Of a stretch of 58,973 bases of DNA, positions 9,596 to 57,353 are shown one piece after another. Position 1 is the first letter of the stretch; each line of letters starts with the position of its first letter. The notes beneath the pieces are model-generated. The model was not told the DNA's origin. It saw nothing but the letters and a program-made list of their open reading frames with translations, and searched no databases. The position numbers and the translations under genes were made by a program. Origin of the DNA: Acidobacteriota bacterium (GTDB taxonomy: Bacteria; Acidobacteriota; Thermoanaerobaculia; Multivoradales; Multivoraceae). The stretch spans positions 1-58,973 of the forward strand of contig JAGWAG010000003.1 in NCBI GenBank assembly GCA_021296535.1. Direction: 5' to 3'.

Positions 9596-10641
9596 GCTGA
9601 AGCCGCCTGCCGGTGTGACTGCTGAACCTGGATCTGGTCCGCCTGCGACCGTCGAAGCGCGATCACGGCGCCTCGCACCCGGTAGGCCACCGGGTCACCC
9701 GAAGGGCTTGCCATCTTCGCCTCCACCAGGGTTCCCGGGAGCAGCCCGAGGTCGAGCAGCCGGCGGCGCTCCAACCCGCGGCAGAAGCGGGAGAAGCCGA
9801 CGACCAGCGCCTGCTCGCCGACCGCCACGTCCGACAGCGAACCGGTGGCCAACGCCGCTGCCGAGGTCCCGCCGGATGCCTCCTCCGCGGCCGGCACGGC
9901 GAAGATGTTCGCCGCGATGACCGGCGCCAGCACGACCTCGTCCAGATCGGCCTCGAAGCGGATGCGCTCGGGCGCCACGGAAGTGACGCGCAACTTCATG
10001 CCGGGATGAACGCCCTCGGCGACCAACTGCGCGTAGATCGCGGCGGGCTCGTCCTCGACGTGGACCACCTCGACCTCGTCGCCGGCCGCGAAGTCCGTCA
10101 ACGTCCGGCCGGCTCGCGGCGGCAGGTCGCCTTCCTCGGTCGGGATCGGGTCGCCGTGCGGGTCGAACGGCGGATGGCCAAGCCGAACCGACAGTTCCTT
10201 GGCCTGCTCGGCGGACGTCCGGTGCTCCCGGCGCTCCGCCTCCGGGTGCCAGCGCTCCGGCTGCAGACCCGTCTCGTCCGCGAGGTAGCGCTCCCACAAC
10301 CGGTGGATGCGGATCACGCGCAGCGCCTCGCTGCGTCCTTCGCCGGTCAGCCGGAAACCGCCTTCCGCCGACACGATGAGCCCCAGCCTCTCCATGCGGG
10401 CGAGGAGTTCGGTGCTGCGCCGGCCCCCAAGCCGCAACACGCCGACCAGACTCTGGTGGGTCGCCTGACGCCCCTGGTACTCGCAGTCGAAGAGGTGCTT
10501 GAGCGCGTCCTCGGTCCGCGTCCGGTGGAGGACGCGCCAGCCGGAGCGCCAGCGCCACAGCCAGCCACGGTCCGGCCATGCCACGAGGGCGGCCAGGGCG
10601 ATGACCGCGGCTAGAACAACCAGTGCAAGAAGGGGGCTCAT
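9592..10641 (-). CDS. membrane-anchored DtxR/MntR-family metalloregulator fused to an extra FeoA domain
   Basis: 349 aa. An N-terminal hydrophobic helix ([22 protein letters not shown]) precedes a wHTH and a DtxR dimerisation/metal-site region (IHRLWERYL...[10 protein letters not shown]). Two SH3-like FeoA segments follow ([13 protein letters not shown]... and [32 protein letters not shown]...). Confidence 0.8.
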
Positions 10642-19893: not shown

Positions 19894-20157
19894 CACTTGC
19901 CTCGCGCCCCGAACCCCCTTAGCCGGCCCGGTGCCTGGGTCCATCCCGTCGCCGTCCGGGAATAAACGGAACTGATACAGTGTTACAAGTTCGTAGAGCA
20001 CGGAGCCACTAGCCACTACGCCATCGCCATGAAACAAGCAGCCCGTGGTAGAAGTCCGCGTCGCACCGAGAGCGGTCAGGCGCCCGTCCAGCAAGGCGCG
20101 ACGAGGGAGCATATCGGGCCATCTTCGACCGAGGAGCAACACAGCTGGGCGGGATGC

Positions 20158-23426: not shown

Positions 23427-23455
23427 GCCCTCCCGGGCCGACCCTGCCGCGGCCG

Positions 23456-25614: not shown

Positions 25615-28290
<2,676 letters not shown>

Positions 28291-30715: not shown

Positions 30716-30717
30716 GC

Positions 30718-32484: not shown

Positions 32485-32540
32485 AACGCGTGGCTGCAAG
32501 CGGCAATGGAGGAGGAGGCCCGTTGCCTGCCGGTCGACCC

Positions 32541-37884: not shown

Positions 37885-37893
37885 CATCGCGCC

Positions 37894-40176: not shown

Positions 40177-42264
40177 CTACAGCCCCCGCAACAGCGATCT
40201 CGCCACCGTGAGATCGGCCGTGTGGCGCCCGCCGAGAGCCGGCGCGGACGCCTGGCGCACGAACCGCTCCAGTGCCGGCCTGGCGATCTCCCGCCGGCCC
40301 GCCCGCGCCGCCACGCTCGCGAGGTTGAACAGCACATCGAGGTCGCCCGGATCGAGCTCGACCGATCGCTGCCAGGCGGAGATCGCCTCGTCGGCCCGGC
40401 GCTGGTTGAACAGCGCGATCCCCAGGTAGTTCCAGGCCAGCGGCAACGCCGGGTTGAGAGCCAGTGCCTCGCGCGCCTCCCGTTCGCACAGCGGCCAGTC
40501 CCCCGCATGCAGGGCTGCCAGGGCCAGGTTCTGCCGCGCCCGTGGGTTCCTCTCGTCGAGTTCGAGAGACCGCAGCAGGATGTCCCTGGCACGGGCGGTG
40601 TCCCCCGACTCGGCAAGCACCAAACCGAGGACGTTCAGCGAGTCCGGATCGCTTGATGTGGCGTGACGCTCCATCAACCGTACCGCGTCCCTCGCCCGCC
40701 CGGTCTGGGCTAGGGTCAGGGCCAACTGTCGCTCTAGCGACGGGGACGCCAGTCCCCGCCGCTCCGCGTCGATCATCAGGCGCAGCGCCTCCTCTACCCT
40801 CCCCTGGTCGAGCAGGACCTGGGCGAGGTTGGAGTACCCGAGTCCCATCCGCGGCCGGCGCTGTATCGTGCGCCGGGCGAGATCCTCGGCCTGCTCAAGG
40901 CGGCCGTCCTGGTAGGCCTCCACGTAGGTTTGGAGCATGCGGTCGAGGTCGACCAGGCTTTTGGGATCGTCCTCTTCGCCGTAGATCCGCGGCAGGTCAA
41001 GTCCGCCGGAAGCGCTGAGATAGCCCAAACTCTGGAGCGCCCGCCGCTCCTCCTCGCTCACCGTGCCCGCTGCCGGCGGCCACTCCGACTCCTCCGGCAG
41101 CAGCGCCGCGAGTTCGGCAGCGGCCCCCGCCTCCGTGGCGTGGAGGTTGCGCACTTCGCCGGGGTCGGCGCCAAGGTCGTAGAGTTCGGGCCGCGGCAGC
41201 GCAATGTACTTCAGGAGGCGCGACCCGTTCTCGCCGCCAGCCCCCGTCCTCTGCCGGGAGACGACGCCGCGAAGAGGCGCCCAACCGCGTTGAAGGTTGG
41301 AACCCAAAGCCTCGAAGTAGGTCGCATCGGGCGTGTCCGGCGCCACGCTCGCGACCGGCGCCCTCCAAAGACTGCGACCGGCCATACCGGGAATCGACGA
41401 TGCGTCGATTCCCGCCGCCTCCAGCATCGTCGGCAGCACGTCGATATGGCGAACGGGCGCACCTATCCGGGCGGGGGTCAGATCCTCGGCCCACAGAACG
41501 AGCGGCACGCCGAGCGTGGCCTCGTACGCGAAGAGGCCGTGCGTCGCCTCACCGTGATCCCCCAGACCCTCGCCGTGATCCGAAGTGACGACCACCAGCG
41601 CGTCCGAGCGCCCCTCGAGGAGGATCGCCTCCTGGAGCAAGCGGCCGACGTACGCGTCGGCCGCCGCGACTTCGCCCAGGTAGGGATTCCCGGCGAACCG
41701 GGTTGAGAACGGCTCCGGCGGCTCGTAGGGCACATGGGGCTCGTACAGATGGACCCAGAGAAACCTGGGCTCGCCCGCGTGCCGCCGCCACCAGGAAGTG
41801 GCGGCCGCCACCACCTCTTCGCCGCTTCGCTCGGCCACGGCGAACCCCCTCGTCGAGCCCTCCGGGTAGGAATCGTCGTAGATCTCGAAGCCTCGATCAA
41901 GCCCGTAGCGGGCGTCGAGCGGAAACGCGGCGACGAAGGCGGCGGTCCGAAAGCCCGCGGCCGCGAACGCCTCCGCGGCCGTCGGGACGGACTCCGGCAG
42001 CACGAATCCGGCGTTGTCCCGTACGCCGTGCTCGTACGGCAACCGGCCCGTTAGCAGGTTCGCATGGGACGGCAGCGTCATCACGCTGTGCGCATGGGCA
42101 CGCTCGAAGACCCAACCTCTCGCCGCGAGACCGTCCAGGTGGGGCGTCTCCGCGTTCGGGTGACCCGCGAAACCGACCGCGTCCGCGCGCAGGGTGTCGA
42201 TCGTCACCAGGACGACATCGCGTGCGAAGCCAGGCGCAGGCGCCTCGGGCCAGGGAGTAGCCAC
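40177..42264 (-). CDS. sulfatase-like (alkaline-phosphatase superfamily) enzyme fused to C-terminal TPR domain, paralogue 1
   Basis: 695 aa from the GTG at 42264. Motifs are VTIDTLRAD, MTLPSHANLLTG (Thr at the nucleophile position), HLYEPHVPYEPP and TSDHGEGLGDHGE, followed by about 250 aa of TPR. A lipoprotein signal is encoded in frame just upstream without a canonical start (see findings). Confidence 0.8.
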   Translation of the reverse strand: MATPWPEAPAPGFARDVVLVTIDTLRADAVGFAGHPNAETPHLDGLAARGWVFERAHAHSVMTLPSHANLLTGRLPYEHGVRDNAGFVLPESVPTAAEAFAAAGFRTAAFVAAFPLDARYGLDRGFEIYDDSYPEGSTRGFAVAERSGEEVVAAATSWWRRHAGEPRFLWVHLYEPHVPYEPPEPFSTRFAGNPYLGEVAAADAYVGRLLQEAILLEGRSDALVVVTSDHGEGLGDHGEATHGLFAYEATLGVPLVLWAEDLTPARIGAPVRHIDVLPTMLEAAGIDASSIPGMAGRSLWRAPVASVAPDTPDATYFEALGSNLQRGWAPLRGVVSRQRTGAGGENGSRLLKYIALPRPELYDLGADPGEVRNLHATEAGAAAELAALLPEESEWPPAAGTVSEEERRALQSLGYLSASGGLDLPRIYGEEDDPKSLVDLDRMLQTYVEAYQDGRLEQAEDLARRTIQRRPRMGLGYSNLAQVLLDQGRVEEALRLMIDAERRGLASPSLERQLALTLAQTGRARDAVRLMERHATSSDPDSLNVLGLVLAESGDTARARDILLRSLELDERNPRARQNLALAALHAGDWPLCEREAREALALNPALPLAWNYLGIALFNQRRADEAISAWQRSVELDPGDLDVLFNLASVAARAGRREIARPALERFVRQASAPALGGRHTADLTVARSLLRGL

Positions 42265-42362
42265 CCGGCCGACCGCCGGTTCTTCGCCATCCGGTCCGGG
42301 CCGGCAGGCTGCCAGCGAGAAGGCCGTCAGGAGGAGACCGGCCGCTGCCCGCCAGACCGTCC

Positions 42363-43337
42363 TCAGAGCGATTCCAGGTACTCCGCGAACTGCTTCGCCT
42401 CCTCGGCCTTCTCACCCTCGGGTTCCAGCTCGATCAGCCTCCGAAAGTCGGCCGCCGCGGCCTCGTTCCTCCCCGCCGCCATGTTCGAGAGTCCGCGGAA
42501 GTAGTAGGCTTCCGACCAGTCCGGCGCCGCCTCGACGGCCGCGTCGAGCTTGGCGACGGCGCCCTCGAAGTCGTTCTCGTTGTACAGCGCGACGCCCTCG
42601 CGCACCAGGATCTCCGGATCCGCCCGCTGGTCCTCGGGCATCCGATCGAGGTATGCCTGAGCTTCGTCGCCGCGGCCCAGCGCCGTCAGACGGCGGCTCA
42701 TCAAGCGGAGCGCGTCCACGTTAGACGGCGCGTAGGTCAGGGCCCGTTCAAGACTCGCCAAGGCCTCGTCGTCCCGCTCCAGTTGCACCTGGGCCTGAGC
42801 CACCGCGACCAGCACCGCCGCCTTGGCGCCCTCCGGCAGAGCAGGCAGGGCCTCGGTGAAGACCTGGATCGCCCCTTCGTAGTCCCCCGACGCGAGCAGG
42901 TCGTTGCCCCGCTCCAACTGTTCCCTGGCCGCCTGCGCCGACTCGCCATCGTCCAGCGCGGCCGCCGAACCGTCGGTCGCCGATACGGCGCCCGCCTCCA
43001 GGGTCGTCTTCAGGAACACCCGGTCGGCAGGCGACGCATACTCCTGAACCAGCGCGCTATGCGTCGTGGACACGTAGCCCGCCTTCGACACGAGCACGTC
43101 CCAGTTCCCTCCGCCAAGGCCGGCGCGCGCCCAGCGCCCCTTTCCGTTCGTCGAGACGACCTCCGGCCCCGCCCCGCCGAGAGTGAGTTGAATACTTGCC
43201 CCTTCCACCGGATTACCATCCGCATCCTGAACCGTGCCGCTCAAGCGCCCGCGGCCCGCCCAGGCCTGCGCCGAAGCAGCCGCGGCCAGAAGGGCGCCGG
43301 CAAGCACGGCGCCGATAACGCGGGTTCGATAGTCCAT
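42363..43337 (-). CDS. secreted CarboxypepD_reg-like domain + TPR protein
   Basis: The ATG at 43337 follows GGGGAGGA. It has a signal peptide (MDYRTRVIGAVLAGALLAAAASAQA), an Ig-like segment (LSGTVQDADGNPVEGASIQL...GNWDVLVSKAGY) and then TPR repeats. Confidence 0.75.
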   Translation of the reverse strand: MDYRTRVIGAVLAGALLAAAASAQAWAGRGRLSGTVQDADGNPVEGASIQLTLGGAGPEVVSTNGKGRWARAGLGGGNWDVLVSKAGYVSTTHSALVQEYASPADRVFLKTTLEAGAVSATDGSAAALDDGESAQAAREQLERGNDLLASGDYEGAIQVFTEALPALPEGAKAAVLVAVAQAQVQLERDDEALASLERALTYAPSNVDALRLMSRRLTALGRGDEAQAYLDRMPEDQRADPEILVREGVALYNENDFEGAVAKLDAAVEAAPDWSEAYYFRGLSNMAAGRNEAAAADFRRLIELEPEGEKAEEAKQFAEYLESL

Positions 43338-43460
43338 GAGTCCTCCCCTCATTCTCCGACCGCCGATCTGTCCTGGCATCCTACTACCGGCGTCCGGCCA
43401 CGGAGACGGCCTGGCCGCCGGTGCGGCCATGTCCCTGCGCGCGGGCACGGCGTCTGGCAT

Positions 43461-43503
43461 ACGAACAAAGAGAAAGGGCCGGGGGGTAGCCCCCGGCCCT
43501 TTC
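43461..43503 (-). terminator. intrinsic terminator downstream of the TonB-dependent receptor gene
   Basis: The minus strand reads GGGCCGGGGG-CTAC-CCCCCGGCCC: a perfect 10-bp GC stem (43476-43485 paired with 43490-43499) followed by TTTCTCTTTGTT. It lies about 60 nt after the stop at 43558. Confidence 0.75.
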
Positions 43504-43557
43504 GATCTTTCCCGGTCCGTGACCTGACTCGTCAGGCCCCGAACCTCCAGTCCTGGA

Positions 43558-46455
43558 CTACTTCCAGTTCAGGCGCACGCCCATGCGGTAGATGCGCGGT
43601 GAAATGTTGTCGTCCAGGTTGCCGCCGTTCGTGTACCGCGTGTTCAGCAGGTACGCGAGGCCAGTGCCTTCGTTCGTCATGTTGAACACGTCGATGCCGA
43701 AGGTCATGTTGACCGGACCTTGAAGAGCGATCTCCTTCTCGACCCGGAAGTCGATCGTCTCGATGTCGTCCAGGCGGTACTGGTCGTAGTCTTGGCCCGG
43801 GATCACGTTGAGCGTCAAGCGCCCCGCCCGCGATCCAAAAGGAGCCACCGCCGCGTTGCTCCAGTAGGCAAGCGGATAGCCCTCGCGTCCGGTCAGGTTC
43901 GCCGAGACGTTGAAGCCCCACGGCCGGTCCGGCGCCACCTGGTACATGCCGTTCAGGCTGTAGCTCCAGGTGGATTGCAGGAAGCGCTCACCCTTGCCGG
44001 AGCCGCTCGAACGCGTCAGGAAGAGGTCGCCGTCCTCGCAGCCCGCACGCCCGACGTTCGGGCTCGCGTGGTCGTAGTAGGAGCGCGGAACGCTGCACTC
44101 ACCCTTGCCGTACTGGTAGAAGCCGCGGGCCATCCAGCGGTTCGCCAGCCTCTTCGTGAAGCTGATCGAGTAGCCGAGATAGTCGCGCCCGCGGTCGCCG
44201 TTCGTTACGTAGCTGCCGCCCGTGCTCACGAGGTCCGAATTCGGGACGCCGTAGTACGGAACGCTGACGCTACGGTCGATCCGGGGCAACTCGGTCTCCA
44301 GGTCCCCGACATGTTCGTAATCACTCCGGTTGAGGATCCGCGTGCTGCCGTCCGGCTGCCGGTAGAGCCCGAAGCCGTCGAGCAAGTCGCTGACCTCCCG
44401 CGAAGTCACCGTGAAGGCGACGACGAACTCGGGCAGGAAAGCGTGCTCCACCGCAGCCAGGATCTCCCGGGTGAGCGGAGGATCCAGGCCCGGATCCGTC
44501 TCGTCGACGATCTTCAGCGGTTCGTCGGGGTCGAAGCCGCGTGCAAAGTAAAGCTCCCCCGTGACGGAGTCGAAGTAGGCATACGAGGCGCCGAACGGCG
44601 AGTTCCTCGTCACCCAGCCCGAGCCCATCTGGTCGTAGAACTGCGAGATGCTGGCGCGAACCAGCGTCTTGCGCTGCTCGCCGATCGCGTAGGTGGCGCC
44701 CAGACGCGGCGCGACGCTTCCCCAACTGAAGCCGGCCTCGGACCCCTGGAAGTTCGTCTCCGGGAAGATATCGCGGTACGCCGCGACCGGATGAGCGGGT
44801 CGGTTGTACGGCTCGTTGGCTCCACCCTGGTCGTCGTACCGAAGGCCGAAATTGATCGTCGCCCGGCCGAAGGTCACCGTGTCCTGAGCCCAGATCGCGT
44901 TGTACTCGGAGACGGCGACGCCGGTGTGATCGCGAACGGCCACCGTGGCGCCCCAGTCGCCGTGGAACACGTCCCGCGGCCCCCACTGGAACACGGAGTT
45001 CTGGGTGAACTCGCGGAAGCGTCCGCCGACCTTCAACTCGTGGTTGACCGACGCGCCCGTGGTGAAGAAGTACGACGTGTCGACCTGGTAGGAGTCGAAC
45101 GGGCGGGAACTACTGCCCGTAAGGTAGTTGTCCTGCCAGACGCCGGCCTCCTGGCGCGGGTCGAGCGCATCCGGATGGAGTCCGTTCTCGTCCGCGCGGG
45201 TACCCCGGGCCGCCAAGGCGAAACCGAAGTCGCCGTGGGAGTAGGTGCCGGTAAGGAAGAAGTTCGCCGAGAACACGTGCGTGTCCTCGAGCCGGTACTG
45301 GGCCGAGGGACCGCGCTGGTTCCAGGTCGTCGGCGCCGGCCGGGTCGTGCCCGCGCCGCGTCCGAACTTCAGCTTGTCGCCGTTGTTGAACGAACCGACG
45401 ATCGAGTTGGATGCGTTGATCTGGCCGTTGGCCTTGAGCGCCGTGTTCTCCAGGATCGTGTCGTCGGCCAGACCGGTCGCCGCGTTCTGCTGGATGTCGT
45501 TCTGACCCCAGCTTCCCCAGAAGAACAGGCGGTCCTGGATCGCGGCGCCACCGGCCTCGAAGCCGATGTCCTCGATCTTCCGCACCTGCGCGCCGGCGAG
45601 CTCGGTCTGGAAGTTGTCCGTGTACAGCTCGTCCTGAATGTTCGGCTGCGCCTGCTTCAGCTTGCCGCCGAAGTAGCCGTTGCGCTGCGTGTTGTAGAAC
45701 CGGGCCGAACCGCGGAACTCGTTGCTGCCGCGCTTGGTGACCAGGTTCACCTGGACGCCGGCGCTGTTCTTCGTCACGTCCGTGCCGCCGGTCGTGAACG
45801 ACATCTCGGCGAACTGGTCGAAGTCGTAGTACGTCGGCGAAGCGCCGGTGGCCGCCATGTCGGTAATCGACGTGCCGTCCATCTGGAAGTCGTTCTGGTT
45901 GCCGGCGACGCCCGGGGCGCGGAAGGTGGCCTGCTGGCCCGACTCCGAACCGCCTACGTTCACGCGGTCGACCAGCACGCCCGGCGTCTGCGACAGCAGA
46001 GCCCAGGGATCGCGCGCGGTCGGGATCTTCTCCAGTTCGACCTGGCTGACGTTGGTGCCGGTCGACAGCTTGCGCTCGTCGAGCAGGGGACTTTCCGAGG
46101 TTACGGTGATCGTCTCCTCAAGTGCTGCACTCAGCACGAGAGGCACGCTGGTGTTCCTGCCGACGGAGACGATGACACCGGGGTACTCGAGCGAACCCAG
46201 GCCCTCGAGTTCCGCCGACACGGTGTACGCGCCGGGGTCAAGAGCCAGGAAACGCCACTGGCCCTGGGCGTCGGTGAACTGCTCGCGCGGTGCGCCGATG
46301 CCGCTGACCGTGACCTTGACGCCGGGCAGCACAGCGCCCGACTCGTCCGCCACCGTGCCGTAGAGATTGCCCGTCGGCGACGCTTGGCCGAAGGCAAGGC
46401 CGGCGACGAACAGGCAAAGGATGACGCTGAACGTCGAAACGAGGCGTCTATTCAT
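43558..46455 (-). CDS. TonB-dependent receptor with N-terminal CarboxypepD_reg domain (Oar-like)
   Basis: The ATG at 46455 opens a signal peptide (MNRRLVSTFSVILCLFVAGLAFGQ). It has a CarboxypepD_reg segment (LYGTVADESGAVLPGVKVTVSG...GAYTVSAEL), a plug (ITVTSESPLLD...IPTARDPWALLSQTPGV) and a long beta-barrel ending RMGVRLNWK. Confidence 0.85.
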   Translation of the reverse strand: MNRRLVSTFSVILCLFVAGLAFGQASPTGNLYGTVADESGAVLPGVKVTVSGIGAPREQFTDAQGQWRFLALDPGAYTVSAELEGLGSLEYPGVIVSVGRNTSVPLVLSAALEETITVTSESPLLDERKLSTGTNVSQVELEKIPTARDPWALLSQTPGVLVDRVNVGGSESGQQATFRAPGVAGNQNDFQMDGTSITDMAATGASPTYYDFDQFAEMSFTTGGTDVTKNSAGVQVNLVTKRGSNEFRGSARFYNTQRNGYFGGKLKQAQPNIQDELYTDNFQTELAGAQVRKIEDIGFEAGGAAIQDRLFFWGSWGQNDIQQNAATGLADDTILENTALKANGQINASNSIVGSFNNGDKLKFGRGAGTTRPAPTTWNQRGPSAQYRLEDTHVFSANFFLTGTYSHGDFGFALAARGTRADENGLHPDALDPRQEAGVWQDNYLTGSSSRPFDSYQVDTSYFFTTGASVNHELKVGGRFREFTQNSVFQWGPRDVFHGDWGATVAVRDHTGVAVSEYNAIWAQDTVTFGRATINFGLRYDDQGGANEPYNRPAHPVAAYRDIFPETNFQGSEAGFSWGSVAPRLGATYAIGEQRKTLVRASISQFYDQMGSGWVTRNSPFGASYAYFDSVTGELYFARGFDPDEPLKIVDETDPGLDPPLTREILAAVEHAFLPEFVVAFTVTSREVSDLLDGFGLYRQPDGSTRILNRSDYEHVGDLETELPRIDRSVSVPYYGVPNSDLVSTGGSYVTNGDRGRDYLGYSISFTKRLANRWMARGFYQYGKGECSVPRSYYDHASPNVGRAGCEDGDLFLTRSSGSGKGERFLQSTWSYSLNGMYQVAPDRPWGFNVSANLTGREGYPLAYWSNAAVAPFGSRAGRLTLNVIPGQDYDQYRLDDIETIDFRVEKEIALQGPVNMTFGIDVFNMTNEGTGLAYLLNTRYTNGGNLDDNISPRIYRMGVRLNWK

Positions 46456-47024
46456 GTCGTTCAATACTCCCTCCGAAGTGAGTTTGTGCGACGGGCTAGC
46501 CCGACCTATGCGGCCCGGCAACACCCTCCGCAGCTTGGATCGAGCCTCATCGGCTCACCAACTGTACTGACCAACCCCGCAAAGCGTGTGCCAAAGCGGC
46601 CGGTGGCCCGCCACACCTTGCCGCGAGAAAAAGCCATGGCCACTGCGGGGTTTTGCAACGGCCCCAAGCCGCTCTGCGCCAAATTGGCGCGCCACGACCT
46701 TTCGGCCCATCCAAAAAAGTGCTCCATGTCCATTATCTTGAAGCGGCTCGCCACATGGCCCATCGTGTAGGACTTCTTCCTGCACTCCGAACGCGTCATC
46801 GAACTGCCACCTGGCGGTTCCAGTGTGCGACACACGCTCAGACAACGCCGCTACCGTCGAGGCGTGACTGACGAAAGACCACCAGCCAAACCAGACCATG
46901 ACGGGAACGCCGTGCGGGTCAACCTGTCGAGTGGATTCATCGTACAGTAGATGGGCTTGGTTTGTCTATCGGTGGACGATGGTGCCGCGGCAACCCGACC
47001 GGGCATGCCTCCACCCGATCCTCG

Positions 47025-48152
47025 ATGAAGCGTCCCCACCAGACTCCACGCTCACGAGCCGTAGCCGCCCGCGGCAGCGGAATCCTCCTCGCGCTACCCG
47101 CGCTCGCGGCCTGTGCCGGCTACGTCCCGTTCGACGGCAGGCAGGCGCTGGCGCCCGAGTTCGAGCGGCGACTGGGCCCCGAATGGCAGCAGGAGATCGT
47201 CGTGCCGTTCGCCGTCGACGACGAGCTCCGACTGGCGGTCGACGGTCGGGTCAGTCCGGCCGGCAGCGAAACCAGCCGGCGCAACGCGGTGATGGATTTC
47301 ATCTTCGGCTGGGTGGACCTCGAGTACGCCCTGACGCCAACGCGGACGGCGGCGCAGACGTACACCTCGGCGCGGGGCAACTGCCTCTCCTTCGTCAACC
47401 TGTTCGTGGCGGTCGGACGCGAGCGGCGCTTGAACCCGTTCTTCGTCGAGGTCAGGGACTACCAGCGCTGGAACTACCAGGACGGCGTCGTGGTCAGCCG
47501 GGGCCACATCGTCGCCGGCATGTACGTGGACGGCGAGATGGCCACCTACGACTTCCTCCCCTACCGGCCGAAGTCGTACCGTGATTTCCGCCCGATCACG
47601 GACCTCGCGGCGACCGGCCACTACTACAACAACCTCGGCGCCGAAGCCCTGATGGACGGCGACCTCGACGCCGCCGAGCGCTGGCTCGACATCGCCACCC
47701 GGCTGACGCCCGACTTCGACAAGGCGATCAACAACTACGGCATCGTGCTGCTTCGACGCGACCGGCTCGACGACGCCGTGCGAGCCTACGAGCAGGGGCT
47801 GGAACTCCACCCGGCCAACGTGCCCCTGCTGACCAACCTGGGCCGGAACGACCGCGCCGGCGAACTCCTGGATGTCCTGGAAGGGTTGAACCGCGCGAGC
47901 CCCTTCTTCTACGTCTACCGCGGCGACGCCGCACTTGCCGCCGGCGATTCGGCCACCGCTCTCGACTACATGCGCCGGGCTCTGCGCGCGGACTCGGAGA
48001 TCCCCGAGGTCCACGTCGGGCTGGCGCGGGTCTACCTGGCAACCGGCAGACTGAGCGAGGCGAAGCACCACGTCGAGCGCGCGCTTCGGCTCGACGCCAC
48101 CCACGCAGAGGCTCGAAAGTACGCGGCCCTGATTGAACGCGGGCCGCCGTAA
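47025..48152 (+). CDS. transglutaminase-like cysteine protease domain + TPR lipoprotein
   Basis: The ATG at 47025 opens a lipobox (LLALPALAAC). The candidate Cys-His-Asp triad is ARGNCLSFVNLFVAVGR ... SRGHIVAG ... ATYDF. The C-terminus carries TPR repeats. Confidence 0.7.
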   Translation: MKRPHQTPRSRAVAARGSGILLALPALAACAGYVPFDGRQALAPEFERRLGPEWQQEIVVPFAVDDELRLAVDGRVSPAGSETSRRNAVMDFIFGWVDLEYALTPTRTAAQTYTSARGNCLSFVNLFVAVGRERRLNPFFVEVRDYQRWNYQDGVVVSRGHIVAGMYVDGEMATYDFLPYRPKSYRDFRPITDLAATGHYYNNLGAEALMDGDLDAAERWLDIATRLTPDFDKAINNYGIVLLRRDRLDDAVRAYEQGLELHPANVPLLTNLGRNDRAGELLDVLEGLNRASPFFYVYRGDAALAAGDSATALDYMRRALRADSEIPEVHVGLARVYLATGRLSEAKHHVERALRLDATHAEARKYAALIERGPP

Positions 48153-48218
48153 AGCCCCGAAGCCCTAACGTGCAACGGGAAGAAACTCCGCTCCGAACTG
48201 TTAGCCTTACCGTCACCG

Positions 48219-50444: not shown

Positions 50445-50502
50445 CCGGGGCAACGGGACGCGGCGCCATCCAACAAACAACTCTGGATCAGGGAGCCCTG
50501 AA

Positions 50503-52624
50503 ATGAACGATCGCAGGCTCATGAACCGGCCACTTCGCATACCCACTCTTCGTGCCGGCGCTCTTCTCTGTGCGGGAGCGCTGCTGCTGTCGGCGGTTTC
50601 GGCCGACGCCCAGCGAAACCGGCGGCAGAGGCAGGCGCAGTTCACCGACACAACGACGGTCACAGTCGTCGAGGTTCCCGTGCAGGTGATCAGCGGCGGG
50701 AATCCGCTTCGCAACCTCACGAAAGATGACTTCGAGATCCTGGACGGCCGCAGGTCGGTCAAGATCACGGGCTTCGATGTCGTCGACCTGTCGACCGTTG
50801 ACGGCAAGCCCACCGAGAATCCCGTGCCGGTAGCGGCACGGCGACACTTCCTGTTGCTCTTCGACCTCTTCTTCACCACCCCCGACTCCGTTGGCCGGGC
50901 GCAGCAGGCCGCCGCAGACCTCGTTCTGCAGGAACTCCACCCCACCGACCTGGTGGCCCTTGCGCTCTACGACACGCGACCCCGCCTCGTGCTCGGTTTC
51001 ACCTCCGATCGCAGCCAGATCCGCCAGGCGATTCGAAGCCTCGGCAAGATAGAGACCGGAGAGTCCATTCGCGACCCTCTGGGTCTGGTGATCGGCGATC
51101 TCAGCGCGGATCCGCCCGTGAACTCCGACCTGGGAGATGGAGGCGGCCAGGCCAACCTCGACGTCGACTCGCTTCTCTCCCAGACCCAACGGGAACTGAG
51201 GAGCCTCCAGGGCGCCGCGGAACGGGGTCGAGCCTCAAGTCATGTCGCGGCACTGACCAGCGGCATGAGCGAACTCGCCAACTGGATGTACTCGATCGAG
51301 GGGCGCAAGCACGTCGTGTTCCTGTCCGAAGGGTTCGACAACTCGATCCTGGTGGGCCAACAGGCCCTGGGAGACACCCGGGAGCAGCAGCAGATCCTGG
51401 ATCGCCAACTCGCGGTTGCGGACGGCCGAACCGCGGAAGTAGACAACGAAGAGCTGTTCGGCAGCAGTTCCGCCCAGAACTCGATGCATCAGATGCTCGC
51501 CAGGTTCCGCGAAGCGAACTGCACAATCCAGGCAGTTGATGTCAGCGGCCAGGTCCGCAGTGAGAGCCAGAGCAACCGCGCTTCCCTGTCCATGATGGCC
51601 AGTGACACCGGCGGCGAGATGTTCGCCAACTTCGGCGATCTGGGCGACGCGATGTCCGAGATGCTGGAACGTACCAGCGTGACCTATCTGCTCGCCTTCC
51701 AGCCCGAGAACCTCAAGTACGACGGCAAGTTCAACAAGCTGCGAGTGCGCCTGAAGAGCGCACCCCGGGGAACCCAGGTCGTCCACCGCCCCGGCTACTA
51801 CGCACCCAAGCCGTACGCCCAGACGAATCCGTTCGAACGGGCGCTGACGTCGGCACAGCAGGTGATGAGTGGCGTCGAGACCGGCGAAATCGACGCCACC
51901 GTCCTGACCGCCGCCTTTCCCGCCGCCAGCGGCAAGGCCTACGCGCCGGTGCTGATCGAAGCCCATGGCGAAGACCTGATCGGCGGCCTCCAGCAGGGCA
52001 CCGTGCCGCTCCAGGTCTACGCCTACGCGCTGGACGAACACGGGATCGTGCGCGACTTCTTCGTCCGCGCCATGGGCCTCGATCTGGCCCAGGCCGGCGC
52101 CGCGCTGCGCCAGAGCGGGCTCAAGTACTGGGGACACTTCGACCTGGACCCCGGCAGAAACGACGCCACCGGCCACCGCGCCCTGACCACGTCTGAGCTC
52201 GCTGTGCCCGGCGAGACGGCTACGCTGCAGCCACCCCTGTTCCCCGAACAACCGGGCAAGTGGGTGCTGATCCGCGAAGAGGAGTCGGAACAGCGCACGG
52301 ACGTCGCCTTCCCGTTCCTTCGCAGCGGCGAGCCCTTCATCCCGGCGGCGAGGCCCGAGGTGACCGCCGGCGGCGAAACGCCGATCAGCCTCGTGGGCAC
52401 CGGCCTCGGTGCCGGCCCCGTGTCGATTCGAACCCAGGTGTTCCGGCCGGACGGCGAGCACGTGGCCGACGGCGGCGAGATCGGCCGGTCCCGGGTTGTC
52501 GCAGCTCTCCGGGGTGTTCGTGGCCGGCAGCAAGCTCTCAGCCGGCGACTACATTCTCTCGGTCGTCGTGACCGACCCGGAGAACCAGGAGCACGCGTCC
52601 TCGACGACGATCCGGGTGCTGTAG
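50503..52624 (+). pseudogene. secreted VWA domain protein, paralogue 2, 1-nt frameshift near the 3' end as assembled
   Basis: It aligns with paralogue 1 throughout (RRHFLLLFDLFFTTPDSVG..., HVVFLSEGFDN). After GGEIG at about 52483-52488 the homologous C-terminus (PGLSQLSGVFVAGSKLSAGDYILSVVVTDPENQEHASSTTIRVL) continues in frame 2 to the stop at 52624. The frame-1 ORF runs on to 52722 with a non-homologous Arg/Pro tail. Confidence 0.75.
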
Positions 52625-52640
52625 AGAGGCGCCGCGGGAC

Positions 52641-54479
52641 CTACCGGACGTCGACGCCGCCGCGCAGGAACGACTGGCGGCCGCCGATGTCGTCACGCAG
52701 GCCGACGCCGATGTCGTGGTAGCCGGCTTCCATCGTGACTTCCAGGCCGTAGCGCCACAGGCCTCCCTCGGTCTCCCCGATCCGGTCCTCGGGAACAGCG
52801 ATCGTCAGCTCGGTGAGCTGCGGCTCGGTCGCGTGGTCGTTTTCGTCCTTTGCCACCAGCCAGAGCTGGATCCGGCCGTGGTGGGCGCCGTCGCGTGGAA
52901 TCAGCGTGAGTTCCTTCCATGCGACTTCGATCACCACAGGCACGTCGTAGTTGCCGTCCGGCCGCCGCTTCGCCGGCAAACTGTCGACCCGAACGCCTAG
53001 CGGATTCTCCTGCATGTTCAGGTTGAGGGCCGAGAGGGTGCCCTCCTTCATCCGCGACTCGACCGACTTGTCCCGGTAGCCCTTGCGGAAGCGGACGGAA
53101 GCGCCGCGGGGCCTTCCCTTCCAGCGCACGTCGATCGAGTGATAGCGCCCCGAAGCGACCGACGACATGGGCATGTAGCCGAGGGAGTAGTAGTTGCGGA
53201 AGTCGTCCGCGATCTTCAGCAGATCGGGCATCACGCGGTTCGCGTTGATCACCGCGCGACCGCCCGTCTCCTCCGCCATGAGCTGGAGCGGCGCCTGAAG
53301 GTTCGTCAACTGGATCTGGTCGATCAGCGCGGCCTGTCCGGGCGCCCCCGCGACCTGGCCGTCCACCGTGCTCTGGGACAGAACCGTCAGCCCTCGGGCA
53401 TCGATCGTGTAGAAGCTCGTCCGGTTCGCGTTCGCGCCCGCCGCGAGCTGCTGGTAGCGCCTCGACATGTCGTACTCCGACATCTCGATCAGTGACACGG
53501 ACCGCTCGTAGAGCTGCTCGACAAAGTAGAAAACGTCCTCGCCCGCGATCATGGGAATGCCGTCGGCGACGTAGATCACCGCCTTGCGGCCCGGCGCCGC
53601 CGAGAGGTTCTCGACCACCCGCGTCAGGCCGTCGATCGCGAGGTTCGTGTCGTTGCGGACCGAACCGGCGTAGGCCATCAACGCGGTGCGCGCGTAGCTG
53701 GCGCCGCCGCCGACTGTCAGCCCCGCCCGCTCGAACGCAGCGACCCCGGGCCTGTTCTCCATCGACTCTTCGTTGTTCACGTCGTTCACGTTGTTGATCA
53801 GGTCGCGGCGCTCGTTGTTCCGGTGGAGCCGCTGGGCAGAAACCTCTTCCAGCTCGAGCAGTGCCCGGTTCAACTCTTCCCGGTCGTTCGTGAAAGGCAT
53901 CCGCAGGTTGAGGGCCGGGTCGAAACTGGCCAGCATGACCTGGTCTTCGGGCCGCAACTGCTCACGGATGAAGGCGCGGAGCTCGCGCAGGACGCGATTG
54001 CGGTTGAACGGCGTCAGGTTGTAGTTGTCGATGTAGACGGCGACATGAAGCGCCTGCTCCGCCGGCACTTCCGGCGGCGCCCGGCGCAGCCGGTCCGCCT
54101 CCAGCGGATCCTCAGGCGGCGGCGGCAGGAGCGGCTGGGCCTCGACCTCGCCGCCGCGGCGGACGAAGAGTTCGTCGTCCCGGAGTTCCACCGCGTAGAA
54201 GTTGCTGATCGGAACCCGTCGACCGTCGACTTGAAGCTCGAAGTCGTCGGGACCGAGACCGAGGACCGGCTTGCCGTCGGCGCCCGTGACGTACACGTCG
54301 ATGTTCACGACCTCGACGTTGACGACCTCCGTGAAGCCTGGACCCGACGGTGCGGGTCTGGACTCGGGCTGGGCCGCCGCGGGAGGCGTCGGTGTCGCCA
54401 GGAGAACGACGCCTGCCGCAACGAGGGCCAGACCCGGGCTGCCGCACCGGAACAGCGCTGTGTGGTTCGACGACGCCAT
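52641..54479 (-). CDS. secreted VWA domain protein, paralogue 3 (more divergent)
   Basis: 612 aa with a signal-like N-terminus. Motifs are VVNVEVVNIDVYVTGADGKPVLGLGPDDFELQVDG, a VWA core (HVAVYIDNYNL...KAVIYVADGIP...FYTIDARG) and NYYSLGY. Confidence 0.75.
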   Translation of the reverse strand: MASSNHTALFRCGSPGLALVAAGVVLLATPTPPAAAQPESRPAPSGPGFTEVVNVEVVNIDVYVTGADGKPVLGLGPDDFELQVDGRRVPISNFYAVELRDDELFVRRGGEVEAQPLLPPPPEDPLEADRLRRAPPEVPAEQALHVAVYIDNYNLTPFNRNRVLRELRAFIREQLRPEDQVMLASFDPALNLRMPFTNDREELNRALLELEEVSAQRLHRNNERRDLINNVNDVNNEESMENRPGVAAFERAGLTVGGGASYARTALMAYAGSVRNDTNLAIDGLTRVVENLSAAPGRKAVIYVADGIPMIAGEDVFYFVEQLYERSVSLIEMSEYDMSRRYQQLAAGANANRTSFYTIDARGLTVLSQSTVDGQVAGAPGQAALIDQIQLTNLQAPLQLMAEETGGRAVINANRVMPDLLKIADDFRNYYSLGYMPMSSVASGRYHSIDVRWKGRPRGASVRFRKGYRDKSVESRMKEGTLSALNLNMQENPLGVRVDSLPAKRRPDGNYDVPVVIEVAWKELTLIPRDGAHHGRIQLWLVAKDENDHATEPQLTELTIAVPEDRIGETEGGLWRYGLEVTMEAGYHDIGVGLRDDIGGRQSFLRGGVDVR

Positions 54480-54529
54480 GGGGAGAGACTAACCCGACTG
54501 CCGCGAATACGGGCGAGAAAGAAGACGCC

Positions 54530-54590
54530 GGATGCCGGCCAGCGGGCCGGCGCACCCAGTGAGGCGACGCTTCACGAGGCGCCTACCGCG
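54530..54590. repeat. REP-like element, third locus (inverted orientation)
   Basis: GCCGGCCAGCGGGCCGGCGCACCCAGTGAGGCGACGCTTCACGAGGCGCC shares the GGCGCACCCAGT core and the GCCGGC-N6-GCCGGC hairpin with the 6533-7273 repeats. It overlaps the stop of the sulfatase-like gene. Confidence 0.55.
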
Positions 54591-56775
54591 ACCCGGCGAG
54601 CAGCCTGAGTTCCTGCGCCTCCGGCCACCGCCGCAGCGCCTCGCCAAGCACGCCGTCCGCGGAGCGCGGATCGTTCATCGCGCGCAGCGCCCGCACCGCC
54701 TCGGCGTACGCGGCCGGATTCGGGTTCACGGTGACCATCTCCTGGAGGGTGCGGCCGACTTCGGCGCCGCGGTCCATGAGCGCCTGGAGGAAGGCCAGGG
54801 CGGAGTACGCCCCGAGGAGGTCGGGCCGCAACGCGATCGCCTCACGGTAAGCGCTCTCGGACTCGGTCTCGCGCCCCAGCGCCGCGAGCGCGGCGCCGCG
54901 GTAGAGATACAGGTGTCCGAGGACCTCCCGGTCGCGACGCTCACCGAACTCGGCCAGCAACCCGTCGCTCAGCGCCACCGCTTCCTCGAAACGATCCTGC
55001 TTGTTCAGCCAGGCCGCCCTGGTGATCAGCGGTCTCACGAGGACGCCGCGTTCCTCCATCGCCCGCTCCAGGTACTCTCCCGCCGCGTCCAGGTCTCCTT
55101 CCAGCATCGCCGCCTGGGCCAGCACGTCGTTCGCCATGGGCGAGCGATCGACGACCGCCAGGGCGTGTTCCCGCGCCTCGTCGACCCGGCCCTCCAGCAG
55201 CAGCAACTCGGCCACCTTTAGTCCGGCGCTTGCAGCGGAGCCCGCGGACTCCTCGAACGCCTTGCGGTACGCCTGAAGTGCCTCCCTGGGCCGCCGGCGC
55301 CGCTCCAGCACGTCGCCCAGCTGCTGCCACGCCAGGACGAGCTGCGGCTCGGCGGCGAGCACCGCCCGCAACGCCTCCTCGGCCTCAGCCAGGTCGCCGC
55401 CGTCGATCAGCCGCGAGGCCCGACCCAGGTCGGCGACGACGCCGATGCGGCTTTTCGGATCCGCCAGCGACTCGCCGCCGGCACGCGCGCCGCCGGACAG
55501 GTAGCCGAGCGACTCCAGACGTCGCCTGGTCTCGGGATCGTCCTCCGCCGGCGTAGTCAGCGTGCGGTCGATCTCCCGGAGGGCCGCCCGCAGCCGCCGC
55601 GCAGCCGCGCGCTCCTCCTGAATCACGTTCGTCCGCTCGTCCGGATCCTCGGCCAGCCGGTACAGCTCCGGATCGGGCGATTCGATGAAGTGCAGGTCGC
55701 CCTCGACGATCGAGGCGAGATCGCTCCAGCCGAAGTGGATCCGGGGATAGACGCTCTCCGACACGATAGGGCGAAGCGGGCCGCCCGGCGACTCCGGCTC
55801 CAACTCGAGAAGATCAAGCCCCGCCAGTCCATCGGGAGATGGCAGCCCCGCAATCGAGTAGACCGTCGGCGCGACATCGCTGAGCTGGGCACCGGACGCG
55901 ACCCGTTCGCCTCCGCGCTCGCCCCCTGGCAGCTTGACGATCAGGGGTACCTGGATGACTTCGCGGTAGATGAAGATCAGGTGATCCATCTCGCCGTGAT
56001 CCATCAAGCCCTCCCCGTGGTCAGACAGCAAAATCACTACCGTTTCGTCATAGACCCCAAGGTCCTCCAGGCGCCGGATGAGATCAGCTACGACCGCGTC
56101 CGCGGCGGCCACCTCGCCGTCGTACGGGTTGTCGTAGCGGTCGGCGAACGGCGCCGGCGGCTCGTACGGTGCATGCGGTTCGTACAGATGGAGGAACAGG
56201 AAGAACGGCGAATCCGCCACGCCTCCGAGCCAGTCCGACGCCGCGGCCAGAGTCTGGGTCCCCGGGCGTTGAAGCCGCCCCAATTGCCGCCCGGTCTCGA
56301 AGCCGACCTCGTCGTCGTAGACATCGAAGCCCCGGGCGATCCCGGTCCCGGCGCGCAGGACGTAGGAGGAAACGAATCCTCCTGTCGCATAGCCTGCTCG
56401 CCCGAGCTCGGCCGCCAGAGTCGGGATCGCCTCGTCCAACCGGTAACCCGCGTTGTCGCGCACGCCGTGTTCCGGCGGCAGCAGGCCGGTGAACACGCTG
56501 GCGTGAGAGGGCAGGGTGACGTTGACGTGCGAGTAGGCACGCTCGAACAGCACGCCCTCGGCGGCGAGCCGGTCGATGGCCGGCGTTTCGACCCCGTCAT
56601 AGCCGTAGGCCGGCAGCCGGTCCGACCGCAGCGTGTCGACGGAAATCAGGACGATCGGCGGCAGGGCCGCATCGGCGGCCGTCTCCGAACCGCCGGGCGG
56701 CGGTGGACTGCATGCCAGCGCCGACAGTGCCGCGACGGCCGCCAACCGCGACGCCAAAGCGCGGAGAGGATTCAC
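54583..56775 (-). CDS. sulfatase-like (alkaline-phosphatase superfamily) enzyme fused to C-terminal TPR domain, paralogue 2, lipoprotein
   Basis: 730 aa. The GTG at 56775 overlaps the upstream stop (GTGA). It has a lipobox (AALSALAC). Motifs are ISVDTLRSD, VTLPSHASVFTG, HLYEPHAPYEPP and LSDHGEGLMDHGE, followed by TPR repeats. Confidence 0.8.
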   Translation of the reverse strand: MNPLRALASRLAAVAALSALACSPPPPGGSETAADAALPPIVLISVDTLRSDRLPAYGYDGVETPAIDRLAAEGVLFERAYSHVNVTLPSHASVFTGLLPPEHGVRDNAGYRLDEAIPTLAAELGRAGYATGGFVSSYVLRAGTGIARGFDVYDDEVGFETGRQLGRLQRPGTQTLAAASDWLGGVADSPFFLFLHLYEPHAPYEPPAPFADRYDNPYDGEVAAADAVVADLIRRLEDLGVYDETVVILLSDHGEGLMDHGEMDHLIFIYREVIQVPLIVKLPGGERGGERVASGAQLSDVAPTVYSIAGLPSPDGLAGLDLLELEPESPGGPLRPIVSESVYPRIHFGWSDLASIVEGDLHFIESPDPELYRLAEDPDERTNVIQEERAAARRLRAALREIDRTLTTPAEDDPETRRRLESLGYLSGGARAGGESLADPKSRIGVVADLGRASRLIDGGDLAEAEEALRAVLAAEPQLVLAWQQLGDVLERRRRPREALQAYRKAFEESAGSAASAGLKVAELLLLEGRVDEAREHALAVVDRSPMANDVLAQAAMLEGDLDAAGEYLERAMEERGVLVRPLITRAAWLNKQDRFEEAVALSDGLLAEFGERRDREVLGHLYLYRGAALAALGRETESESAYREAIALRPDLLGAYSALAFLQALMDRGAEVGRTLQEMVTVNPNPAAYAEAVRALRAMNDPRSADGVLGEALRRWPEAQELRLLAGSR

Positions 56776-57329
56776 TTCAGTTCAAGGGTCAGCTCGACCG
56801 TCTGCGGCAGACCGGAAACGTCTCCAACCGGCGTCCAAACCTCGACCGTCTCGCCGTCCTCTTCGACGTCGGACACCTCGACCCATCGCGCCTCCCGCAA
56901 CCGAACCAGCACCTCGAGCTTTCCGTCCGCCGGCGCCGGACGGCCGGTTTCCGAGGTCCAGAAGTTGTAGAGCGCCACCTCCTCCGACTGCCCCGCTTCG
57001 ATCACCTGGAGGAAGAGCTGCTTCTCGTACACGGGCAAGGAATGGCCGTTCACTTCGACATCGAAGCCGAAGCTGTACACCGCCCGGTTGCCTGTGTTCT
57101 CGATCGTCGCCGTCAGCTTGCAGAGCGTCTCGGCGCTGGGCGCCGCCGGACTCACTTCGATGCCGGTCAGAACGACATCCTGCTGATCCTCCGCGACGAC
57201 CGCAGTGACGGACAGCAAGAGGAAGACGGACCAGACGCTGACGACCCCTGACGCCGCTGACCGGCGCCGTGACCTGTTTCTTCGACCGGAAGACCCGGTC
57301 CCGGACGCCGCGTTCAGCACGGCATGCAT
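56772..57329 (-). CDS. small secreted hypothetical protein, CARDB/Ig-like beta-sandwich suspected
   Basis: Only the last 186 codons of the 653-codon ORF look real. They begin at the ATG at 57329 with a basic n-region and hydrophobic core (VVSVWSVFLLLSVTAVVA). LCKLTATIENTGNRAVYSFGFDVEVNGHSL...EAGQSEEVALYNFW resembles CARDB-type domains. Confidence 0.55.
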   Translation of the reverse strand: MHAVLNAASGTGSSGRRNRSRRRSAASGVVSVWSVFLLLSVTAVVAEDQQDVVLTGIEVSPAAPSAETLCKLTATIENTGNRAVYSFGFDVEVNGHSLPVYEKQLFLQVIEAGQSEEVALYNFWTSETGRPAPADGKLEVLVRLREARWVEVSDVEEDGETVEVWTPVGDVSGLPQTVELTLELK

Positions 57330-57353
57330 ACTATCGACGGGAGCCCTTCGACC

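Follow-up and report, generated by a model that had tools for sequence, protein, structure and literature searches.

A seven-family, transporter-centred envelope gene cluster conserved in Thermoanaerobaculia (Acidobacteriota)

Introduction

Among the described envelope systems closest to the locus studied here, the Lap system combines a transglutaminase-like periplasmic cysteine protease with a VWA-containing surface protein and an outer-membrane barrel, and in the Fus system a protein (ferredoxin) is imported by the FusA transporter and then processed by a dedicated periplasmic protease, FusC. The Oar class of TonB-dependent transporters has an architecture of a PF13620 (CarboxypepD_reg) extension, a plug and a barrel; its only characterised member, Oar, is an exporter, required for the secretion of PopC in Myxococcus xanthus (PMC6434023). 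Here we describe a gene cluster centred on a transporter assigned to this class, found in a 58,973-nucleotide stretch of DNA (hereafter the window) from an Acidobacteriota bacterium of the family Multivoraceae (GenBank assembly GCA_021296535.1, contig JAGWAG010000003.1). It is a real and strongly conserved envelope gene cluster of the Thermoanaerobaculia, made up of seven families and apparently undescribed in the literature.

The products of the cluster include the transporter, an exported CarboxypepD_reg/TPR protein (CpdTPR), lipoproteins in which a sulfatase-like domain is fused to TPR repeats (sulfTPR), a transglutaminase-like/TPR lipoprotein (TG-TPR), secreted VWA proteins of the TIGR03436 family and a DUF3179 protein. 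An original prediction, made from the sequence of the window, saw here a duplicated pairing of the sulfatase-like/TPR fusions with the VWA proteins and took the gene set for a candidate undescribed system. The second of these proposals is borne out, as neither the literature searched nor our Pfam, NCBIfam and PADLOC scans yielded a matching system; the literature searched likewise gave nothing relevant on TIGR03436 biology, on Candidatus Multivorans, on this gene combination or on S1-fold enzymes of the threonine (Thr) type. Acidobacteriota are abundant in soils, sediments and sponges, and their genomes are rich in Oar-class receptors, TIGR03436 VWA proteins and TPR proteins without an assigned role. 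The conservation of the cluster over order-level divergence gives these families a concrete and testable context.

Results

The cluster is conserved and centred on a transporter

Two scans of species-representative genomes showed that two divergent operons recur in the relatives of the window. Operon A encodes an Oar-class TonB-dependent transporter, followed by CpdTPR and by one to four copies of the Thr-type sulfTPR lipoprotein; operon B encodes TG-TPR, followed by DUF3179 (a CxxC protein, at this position in part of the loci) and by two to six VWA proteins. In the window, the 40.2-58.8 kb region is organised as four transcription units: unit 1 on the minus strand (46455 to 40177; transporter, CpdTPR, sulfTPR1), unit 2 on the plus strand (47025 to 52624; TG-TPR, VWA1, VWA2), unit 3 on the minus strand (57329 to 52641; a small CARDB-like protein, sulfTPR2, VWA3) and unit 4 on the plus strand (57324-58787), which consists of the DUF3179 gene alone. 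This full layout is kept within Multivoraceae, and the small CARDB-like gene is kept at the same position in about 40 related loci. The nearest relatives of the window are metagenome-assembled genomes of Candidatus Multivorans, Thermoanaerobaculia and "Holophagales/Acidobacteria bacterium". The extent first proposed for the cluster, 40177-57329, contains the genes expected of it but misses the DUF3179 member.

For the comparison, 76 loci were fetched around sulfTPR2 homologs and 86 around VWA1 homologs, the latter sought with an alignment headed by a distant ortholog (a single distant VWA1 homolog as query gave only 6), and all were annotated with hidden Markov models (HMMs) derived from the proteins of the window and from related sequences. 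The informative set comprised 50 VWA1 orthologs with 46-62% identity, and only loci with enough flanking sequence were counted. In these distant loci, TG-TPR lies directly upstream of VWA1 in 41/47 cases, the transporter is divergent from TG-TPR in 32/34, and CpdTPR is present, between the transporter and sulfTPR, in 25/29. A sulfTPR gene was found at a distance of at most 10 kb in 23 of the 29 and in its canonical slot behind CpdTPR in 20 of them; several of the misses occur because a second copy of the transporter pushes sulfTPR past the 10-kb flank.

Unsupervised gene clustering of 36 distant loci recovered VWA genes in 36, the transporter in 32, TG-TPR in 31, sulfTPR in 26 and CpdTPR in 24, compared with 9 for FG-GAP, 8 for DUF3179 (the dedicated DUF3179 HMM detects more distant loci than this) and 7 for the best flanking family, threonyl-tRNA synthetase (ThrRS). 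Since the core families are kept in these loci and flanking families reach at most 7, the cluster has been retained while the surrounding gene order decayed. The mean column identity among loci is 57%, so that they are not near-identical assemblies. Within the cluster, some positions are less constant: DUF3179 occurs at three places (between TG-TPR and VWA1, behind VWA2 and next to sulfTPR2), and the positions of VWA3 and sulfTPR2 also vary. Retention, fixed orientation and a linkage that survives rearrangement point to selection. In agreement with the original view of a modular assembly, these genes form a non-random, conserved and fully exported module.

Adjacent genes are also tied to each other at the nucleotide level. 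Each sulfTPR gene overlaps the preceding stop codon by 4 nt, sulfTPR1 at 42363-42366 and sulfTPR2 at 56772-56775 (minus strand), where GTGA contains both its GTG start and the stop of the small gene; these overlaps suggest translational coupling. The sulfTPR1 gene had been proposed to span 40177-42264, and while the gene itself stands, its start does not, as the lipoprotein signal peptide (lipobox LAAC) lies upstream of 42264. No ATG, GTG or TTG is present upstream of this signal peptide; the likely start is a CTG at 42366-42364, which shares CTGA with the CpdTPR stop and is kept in the Multivoraceae orthologs, except that locus L117 has TTG.

TIGR03436 VWA, TPR, Oar-like and sulfatase-like families are expanded in Acidobacteria, as the TIGR03436 family description states in part, and large families can become neighbours by chance. 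As the background to our counts we used the loss of conservation among flanking genes, together with a binomial bound, the enolase loci being unusable for this purpose because their best 80 matches are almost all non-acidobacterial. With an assumed 20 sulfTPR copies per 4.5 Mb genome, the chance of finding one within 10 kb is about 9%, which gives a binomial tail of 2e-19 for 23/29; because the loci are of common descent, their counts cannot be treated as independent events, and this tail is no true probability. A chance neighbourhood would fit the wider sulfTPR family, in which few loci have a VWA gene nearby (see below), but it is contradicted by the order and orientation fixed across orthologs of 46-62% identity whose flanks are not conserved, by tails of about 1e-15 or smaller, by the stop/start overlaps and by the divergence between loci. 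Chance-level co-occurrence, which the original prediction had named as its refutation, is clearly not what the loci show, and we reject chance adjacency as so improbable as to be negligible.

For the wider sulfTPR family we looked at 30 distant loci, each 8 kb or longer and some of them from Aminicenantia, Terriglobia and Methylomirabilota. Of these, 21/30 have a transporter nearby, 17/30 have it on the same strand within 2.5 kb, and sulfTPR is multiplied in 16/30, often in tandem and with one or two transporters; a VWA gene is nearby in just 7/30. As the transporter is constant across the wider family where VWA is not, the pairing of transporter and sulfTPR is therefore the oldest and broadest, and the TG-TPR/DUF3179/VWA operon joined this pair in Thermoanaerobaculia. 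The idea that sulfatase-TPR and VWA genes form a duplicated unit must thus be given up: in the window only sulfTPR2 adjoins a VWA gene, sulfTPR1 being part of the transporter operon, and relatives mostly carry their sulfatase-TPR paralogs in tandem behind the transporter and CpdTPR, with the VWA genes in the divergent operon. The adjacency of sulfTPR2 and VWA3 is a rearrangement essentially confined to Multivoraceae, and the apparent "duplicated pairing" of the window is one permutation of a transporter-centred cluster.

The sulfatase-fold/TPR enzymes have threonine in place of formylglycine

The two sulfTPR proteins are full-length paralogs, as had been proposed (35% identity over 678 aa, E 4e-78), and both match the Sulfatase family PF00884 (137 and 133 bits for sulfTPR1 and sulfTPR2) and TPR families. 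Each of the blocks DTLR[AS]D, TLPSHA, EHGVRDNAG, HLYEPH.PYEPP.PF, GEVAAADA and SDHGEGL.DHGE was found in both. The nearest solved structures by sequence are S1 sulfatases (phmmer against the PDB, E 5e-25), and an AlphaFold2 model of sulfTPR2 built from 52 sequences, with a predicted local distance difference test score (pLDDT) of 88.3 and a predicted template modelling score (pTM) of 0.79, gave S1 sulfatases and phosphonate monoester hydrolases as its top Foldseek matches (E about 1e-20, template modelling score, normalised to the target, 0.6-0.69). The two-subdomain sulfatase fold of the alkaline-phosphatase superfamily is present, including the S1 C-terminal subdomain.

Where S1 sulfatases have the formylglycine signature C/S-x-P-x-R, the sulfTPR proteins have T-L-P-S-H, with T-x-P-x-H invariant. 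All 98 homologs, which range down to about 32% identity, share T87, H91, D47, R50, D52, H196, H201, D226, D252, H253, H260 and E262, and none of these 98 has the Cys/Ser...Arg signature at that position. The counterpart of the G-K-W-H-L-G segment, with its sulfate-binding Lys and His, reads GFVSSYVL, with neither of these residues, a correspondence drawn by eye from the order of the motifs and not from structural superposition. Members of the alkaline-phosphatase superfamily use a Thr or Ser nucleophile for phosphoryl transfer, as in NPP, PafA, EptA and LtaS, and formylglycine for sulfate esters. The invariant active-site residues, together with the Thr in place of formylglycine, therefore indicate an intact enzyme that is not a formylglycine sulfatase, and a Thr nucleophile in this superfamily makes a phospho(di)esterase likelier than a sulfatase. 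The sulfTPR proteins are thus, from their sequences, probably phospho(di)esterases or phosphotransferases, and we rejected the candidate of a true sulfatase on the grounds of the T-L-P-S-H replacement.

Such enzymes might also serve envelope maintenance, transferring or removing phosphoethanolamine- or phosphoglycerol-like groups on lipids, glycans or proteins in the manner of EptA, LtaS and OpgB, with the TPR domains selecting protein partners in a housekeeping module of envelope biogenesis. The Thr nucleophile and the D-H metal ligands fit the PF00884 transferases, the DHGE region gives weak NCBIfam matches to MCR, EptA, CptA, LtaS and YejM, and in distant genomes the single-copy cluster lies beside housekeeping genes (thrS, pheT); TPR lipoproteins such as NlpI, BamD and Tgl often serve as envelope scaffolds. 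However, the known transferases reach their lipid donors by means of a membrane-spanning domain, which the sulfTPR proteins lack; the sulfTPR fold contains the C-terminal subdomain of S1 sulfatases and is matched best by soluble hydrolases; and a tandem expansion to four copies would be unusual for a housekeeping enzyme. We therefore regard a maintenance role as quite unlikely.

The transglutaminase-like, VWA and DUF3179 proteins

TG-TPR matches the transglutaminase family PF01841 below its gathering score (19.4 versus 23 bits), and the N-terminal domains of all 17 orthologs match it weakly (best E 4e-6). C120, H161 and D176 are invariant among the orthologs. In the AlphaFold2 model (pLDDT 87.7), the Cys opens a helix and neighbouring strands bear the His and the Asp, a predicted active-site geometry like that of papain-like and transglutaminase-like folds. 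A Foldseek search with this model listed only TPR proteins, as the TPR repeats swamped the list and the transglutaminase-like domain was not searchable alone, and profile searches of the PDB with the VWA1 family and with the TG-TPR N-terminal domain gave nothing significant.

The three secreted VWA proteins all score above the TIGR03436 cutoff of 81.25 bits (VWA1 161.9, VWA2 155.3 and VWA3 186.3 bits), which agrees with their proposed paralogy; VWA1 and VWA2 are 38% identical, and VWA3 is only about 24% identical to either. VWA1 keeps the DxSxS motif of a candidate metal-ion-dependent adhesion site (MIDAS) as DLSFS at residue 129, and VWA1 orthologs have weak Ig-like matches (Y_Y_Y, Wzt_C, Big_13), clearest in the C-terminal part. 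The end proposed for VWA2, 52624, holds only after a frameshift: compared with eight orthologs, 24 nt (8 codons) are missing in frame near 52155 and about 20 nt near 52482, the latter shifting the frame so that the last 45 or so residues are read from a different frame, which stops at 52624, and the uninterrupted open reading frame (ORF) runs on to 52722 in a junk frame. These deletions disrupt the C-terminal (Ig-like) region and could reflect either gene decay or an assembly error.

DUF3179 is a recurrent member of the cluster, located between TG-TPR and VWA1 or after VWA2 in many distant loci. Its C-T-L-C motif is identical in 9 sequences, and the family includes selenoproteins with a UxxC/T motif (PMC9312934), which together argue for a redox-active site. 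The remaining family assignments of the original prediction also held, namely the TG-like/TPR protein with its weak PF01841 match, the CarboxypepD_reg/TPR protein, the transporter and the small CARDB protein. By inspection of sequence patterns, every product appears to have a signal peptide or lipobox at its N-terminus.

VWA and TPR envelope proteins also co-occur in the BatA-E proteins, which raises the possibility that the cluster is a variant of the Bat/MoxR-VWA (aerotolerance-type) system. But the TIGR03436 VWA proteins of the cluster are secreted and carry no membrane anchor, and neither the scanned ORFs of the window nor the families that recur in the 36 related loci include a MoxR AAA+, DUF58 or BatD gene. 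The absence of MoxR and DUF58 had already been put forward as a reason not to call this a Bat/MoxR operon, and we likewise rejected this variant, which we consider highly improbable, for lack of a MoxR/DUF58 partner.

The transporter and its operon

The transporter (at its widest 43558-46524) matches PF13620 with 54.1 bits (cutoff 32.3) and the Plug family PF07715 with 23.3 bits, just under the cutoff of 23.9; it gave no match to PF00593, the family of the 22-strand barrel, at E<=0.01 and no significant PDB match by phmmer. The approximately 700 aa that follow the plug are taken, from their length and context, to be the barrel, and the combination of PF13620 extension and borderline plug assigns the protein, by predicted architecture, to the Oar class. 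Downstream of the transporter gene, a 14-bp GC-rich hairpin followed by a T tract (43472-43503, minus strand) was matched as a pattern in a consensus scan; it may be a terminator, or an attenuator that sets a higher level of the transporter. The 5' end of CpdTPR is uncertain, its real start probably lying further downstream.

Gene inventory of the window

Genes were chosen by third-position GC in the window, which has a G+C content of 66-71%, and scanned against Pfam and NCBIfam; the features of the cluster are collected in Table 1. The rest of the window encodes housekeeping genes, including leucyl-tRNA synthetase (LeuRS), FeoAB, a transhydrogenase, phosphofructokinase (PFK) and enolase. An Rfam scan of the whole window, including the divergent intergenic region, gave no match; a promoter and terminator scan gave counts at the level of shuffled sequence, with the exception of one strong hairpin; and PADLOC gave no defence-system match, only two TPR-level matches with E of about 1e-4.

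Table 1. Coordinates of the cluster features in the window.
Feature	Coordinates	Strand	Description
sulfTPR1	40177..42366	-	Lipoprotein with S1-sulfatase fold (predicted Thr nucleophile) and C-terminal TPR; end of transporter operon; PF00884 E 1e-39, TPR families
CpdTPR	42363..43460	-	Exported CarboxypepD_reg beta-sandwich followed by TPR; PF13620 E 7e-11 and TPR
Hairpin and T tract	43472..43503	-	Between transporter and CpdTPR; consensus scan, pattern match only
Oar-class TonB-dependent transporter	43558..46455	-	Signal peptide, CarboxypepD_reg extension, plug, presumed barrel of ~700 aa
Divergent intergenic region	46456..47024	.	569 bp, 61% GC; presumed shared promoters of both operons
TG-TPR	47025..48152	+	Lipoprotein; transglutaminase-like Cys-His-Asp domain followed by TPR; ORF opens at 46962
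VWA1	48219..50444	+	Secreted TIGR03436 VWA; DxSxS MIDAS motif; weak C-terminal Ig-like matches
VWA2	50503..52624	+	TIGR03436 paralog, damaged in the window; uninterrupted ORF to 52722
VWA3	52641..54479	-	Divergent TIGR03436 paralog; downstream gene of the unit small gene-sulfTPR2-VWA3
sulfTPR2	54583..56775	-	Second Thr-type sulfatase-fold/TPR lipoprotein; PF00884 E 2e-38; GTG start
Small exported CARDB-like protein	56772..57329	-	CARDB E 9e-6; upstream of sulfTPR2 in Multivoraceae
DUF3179 protein	57324..58787	+	PF11376 244 bits; invariant C-T-L-C motif; outside the originally predicted range

Upstream of the cluster, an array at 30604-40164 (plus strand) encodes three FG-GAP/ASPIC(UnbV) proteins, with two long TPR proteins interspersed; FG-GAP/ASPIC and TPR families adjoin the cluster in 9/36 distant loci, and also several distant sulfatase-TPR genes, and this array may be an associated module. 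In many Multivoraceae relatives, an insertion of about 4.5-7 kb that is absent from the window lies between VWA3 and VWA2; in two scanned loci (L013, 14083-16647; L015, 14046-19223) it carries one or two genes for secreted reprolysin-like (M12B) metalloproteases with an fn3 domain. Further away, a DUF1592/DUF1588/DUF1595 protein is paired with a DUF1552 (HXXSHH) protein beside a PQQ-dependent dehydrogenase (20029-25561), and a gene at 9592-10641 (minus strand), directly upstream of FeoB, fuses the C-terminal domain of an iron-dependent repressor (DtxR-type) to FeoA domains. The best 80 genome matches of enolase (25706-27007, plus strand) are mainly from Chloroflexota, at no more than 72% identity, with no Multivorans genome among the matches listed, unlike the cluster genes, which have 85-90% matches in Multivorans genomes; this may be because the pattern-based search is limited, or because the enolase gene was transferred.

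Discussion

The reading of the cluster that we favour, with a probability of roughly 0.4 and hence tentatively, is a transporter-centred system for the capture, processing and uptake of a substrate. In the envelope or on the cell surface, the VWA proteins would bind a macromolecular substrate, anionic or linked to protein, the putative MIDAS-type metal-ion site of VWA1 serving in this binding, and the TG-like hydrolase would cleave this substrate, with DUF3179 perhaps keeping its catalytic Cys reduced and thereby protecting or activating it. The transporter would then move the products inward, and the TPR-tethered Thr-type enzymes, which may dock under or beside the barrel via the CarboxypepD_reg/TPR adaptor, would work as phospho(di)esterases on what has been imported or captured. 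We favour uptake because sulfTPR pairs with the transporter even where VWA is absent, because enzymes and transporters have been expanded in tandem, a pattern typical of nutrient loci, because stop/start coupling links adjacent genes, because sponge-type relatives have secreted reprolysin-like proteases inserted into the cluster, and because all the products carry export signals.

Several observations weigh against uptake. Neither the ORF scans of the cluster and the window nor the families of the 36 loci yielded an ABC or inner-membrane importer or any Ton gene, and the one characterised transporter of this class exports a protein (PMC6434023). The canonical first MIDAS motif is absent in VWA2 (DLFFT) and in VWA3, which has no DxSxS. 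K-mer footprinting of the divergent intergenic region in 71 loci revealed only short conserved blocks, near 46919-46945, and neither this footprint nor Rfam gave a recognisable operator, regulator or riboswitch. The shared ancestry of the loci also lessens what their counts can say, and the cluster is single-copy and stably placed, which fits a housekeeping envelope role as well as a nutrient locus.

The opposite direction of transport would make the cluster a system of export and surface assembly, in which the VWA proteins, or the TPR enzymes, cross the outer membrane outward through the Oar-class transporter and are then either released by the TG-like lipoprotein, in LapG-like proteolysis, or cross-linked by it, through transglutaminase chemistry, to form an adhesin layer on the surface. 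PopC secretion depends on Oar, whose N-terminal architecture (PF13620 and plug) is the same (PMC6434023), a VWA domain with weak Ig-like matches is typical of adhesins, TG-TPR immediately precedes the VWA genes in most loci and the cluster holds no inner-membrane importer. On the other hand, the transporter pairs with sulfTPR in loci of the wider family that have no VWA gene, the match of the TG domain is to PF01841 instead of the LapG family, and no LapD or type I secretion gene accompanies it. The cluster proteins moreover appear to carry Sec signal peptides, whereas PopC, to our knowledge, has none, and nearly all the characterised TonB-dependent transporters that we know of are importers. 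Export thus appears unlikely, though a little less so than the maintenance role discussed above. A related proposal, which we hold to be doubtful to much the same degree as maintenance, is a novel outer-membrane machine in which the transporter, the TPR-scaffolded enzymes and the CxxC protein export, covalently process and display the TIGR03436 VWA proteins; the processing would then consist of transglutaminase-type cross-linking or cleavage, or of modification with phospho groups.

Our study identifies a branch of the sulfatase fold in which Thr has been swapped for formylglycine, and "sulfatase" counts in surveys of sponge-symbiont and soil Acidobacteria probably include these genes wrongly. 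If Oar-type export does operate here, it would extend a mechanism known so far from one Myxococcus protein. Surface assembly, if true, would represent a new transporter-dependent route of surface-protein assembly and would provide the first function for TIGR03436, for DUF3179 and for the Thr-nucleophile branch of the S1-sulfatase fold.

The cluster is similar in logic to several known systems but in each case lacks the feature that defines them. Like the Bat (BatA-E)/MoxR-VWA systems, it brings VWA together with TPR envelope proteins, but it lacks MoxR, DUF58 and BatD, its VWA proteins are not membrane-anchored, and it has a transporter and enzyme-TPR fusions. The Lap and Fus systems resemble it by analogy of mechanism only. 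A Pfam scan of TG-TPR and the 17 ortholog N-terminal domains gave no LapG-family (Peptidase_C93) match, only PF01841, and we rejected the Lap system as a candidate on this basis, LapD and type I secretion also being absent; from Fus, the cluster differs in having no M16 protease and no FusB-like TonB. The transporter is of the same subclass as that of the Oar-PopC system of Myxococcus xanthus by predicted architecture (PF13620, plug and barrel; PMC6434023), and the cluster contains neither a PopC-like subtilisin nor linked Ton genes.

With S1 sulfatases and phosphonate monoester hydrolases, the sulfTPR proteins share the two-subdomain fold, the Asp/His metal ligands and the PH.P motif. They differ from S1 sulfatases in their T-L-P-S-H motif, in the sulfate-binding segment G-K-W-H-L-G, which by eye is seemingly absent, and in their fusion to about 280 aa of TPR with a lipoprotein signal. 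The SusC/SusD loci of Bacteroidota likewise have a CarboxypepD_reg-like extension on the TonB-dependent transporter, followed by a helical TPR-like lipoprotein and exported hydrolases, often sulfatases, with tandem expansion of the enzymes. No cluster protein matched the SusD family in the Pfam scans, and we rejected a SusCD locus as a candidate for want of a SusD-family lipoprotein. In contrast to the SusC/SusD loci, the cluster belongs to the phylum Acidobacteriota, has the TPR fused to the enzyme and Thr in place of formylglycine, and adds a TG-like/DUF3179/VWA operon of its own.

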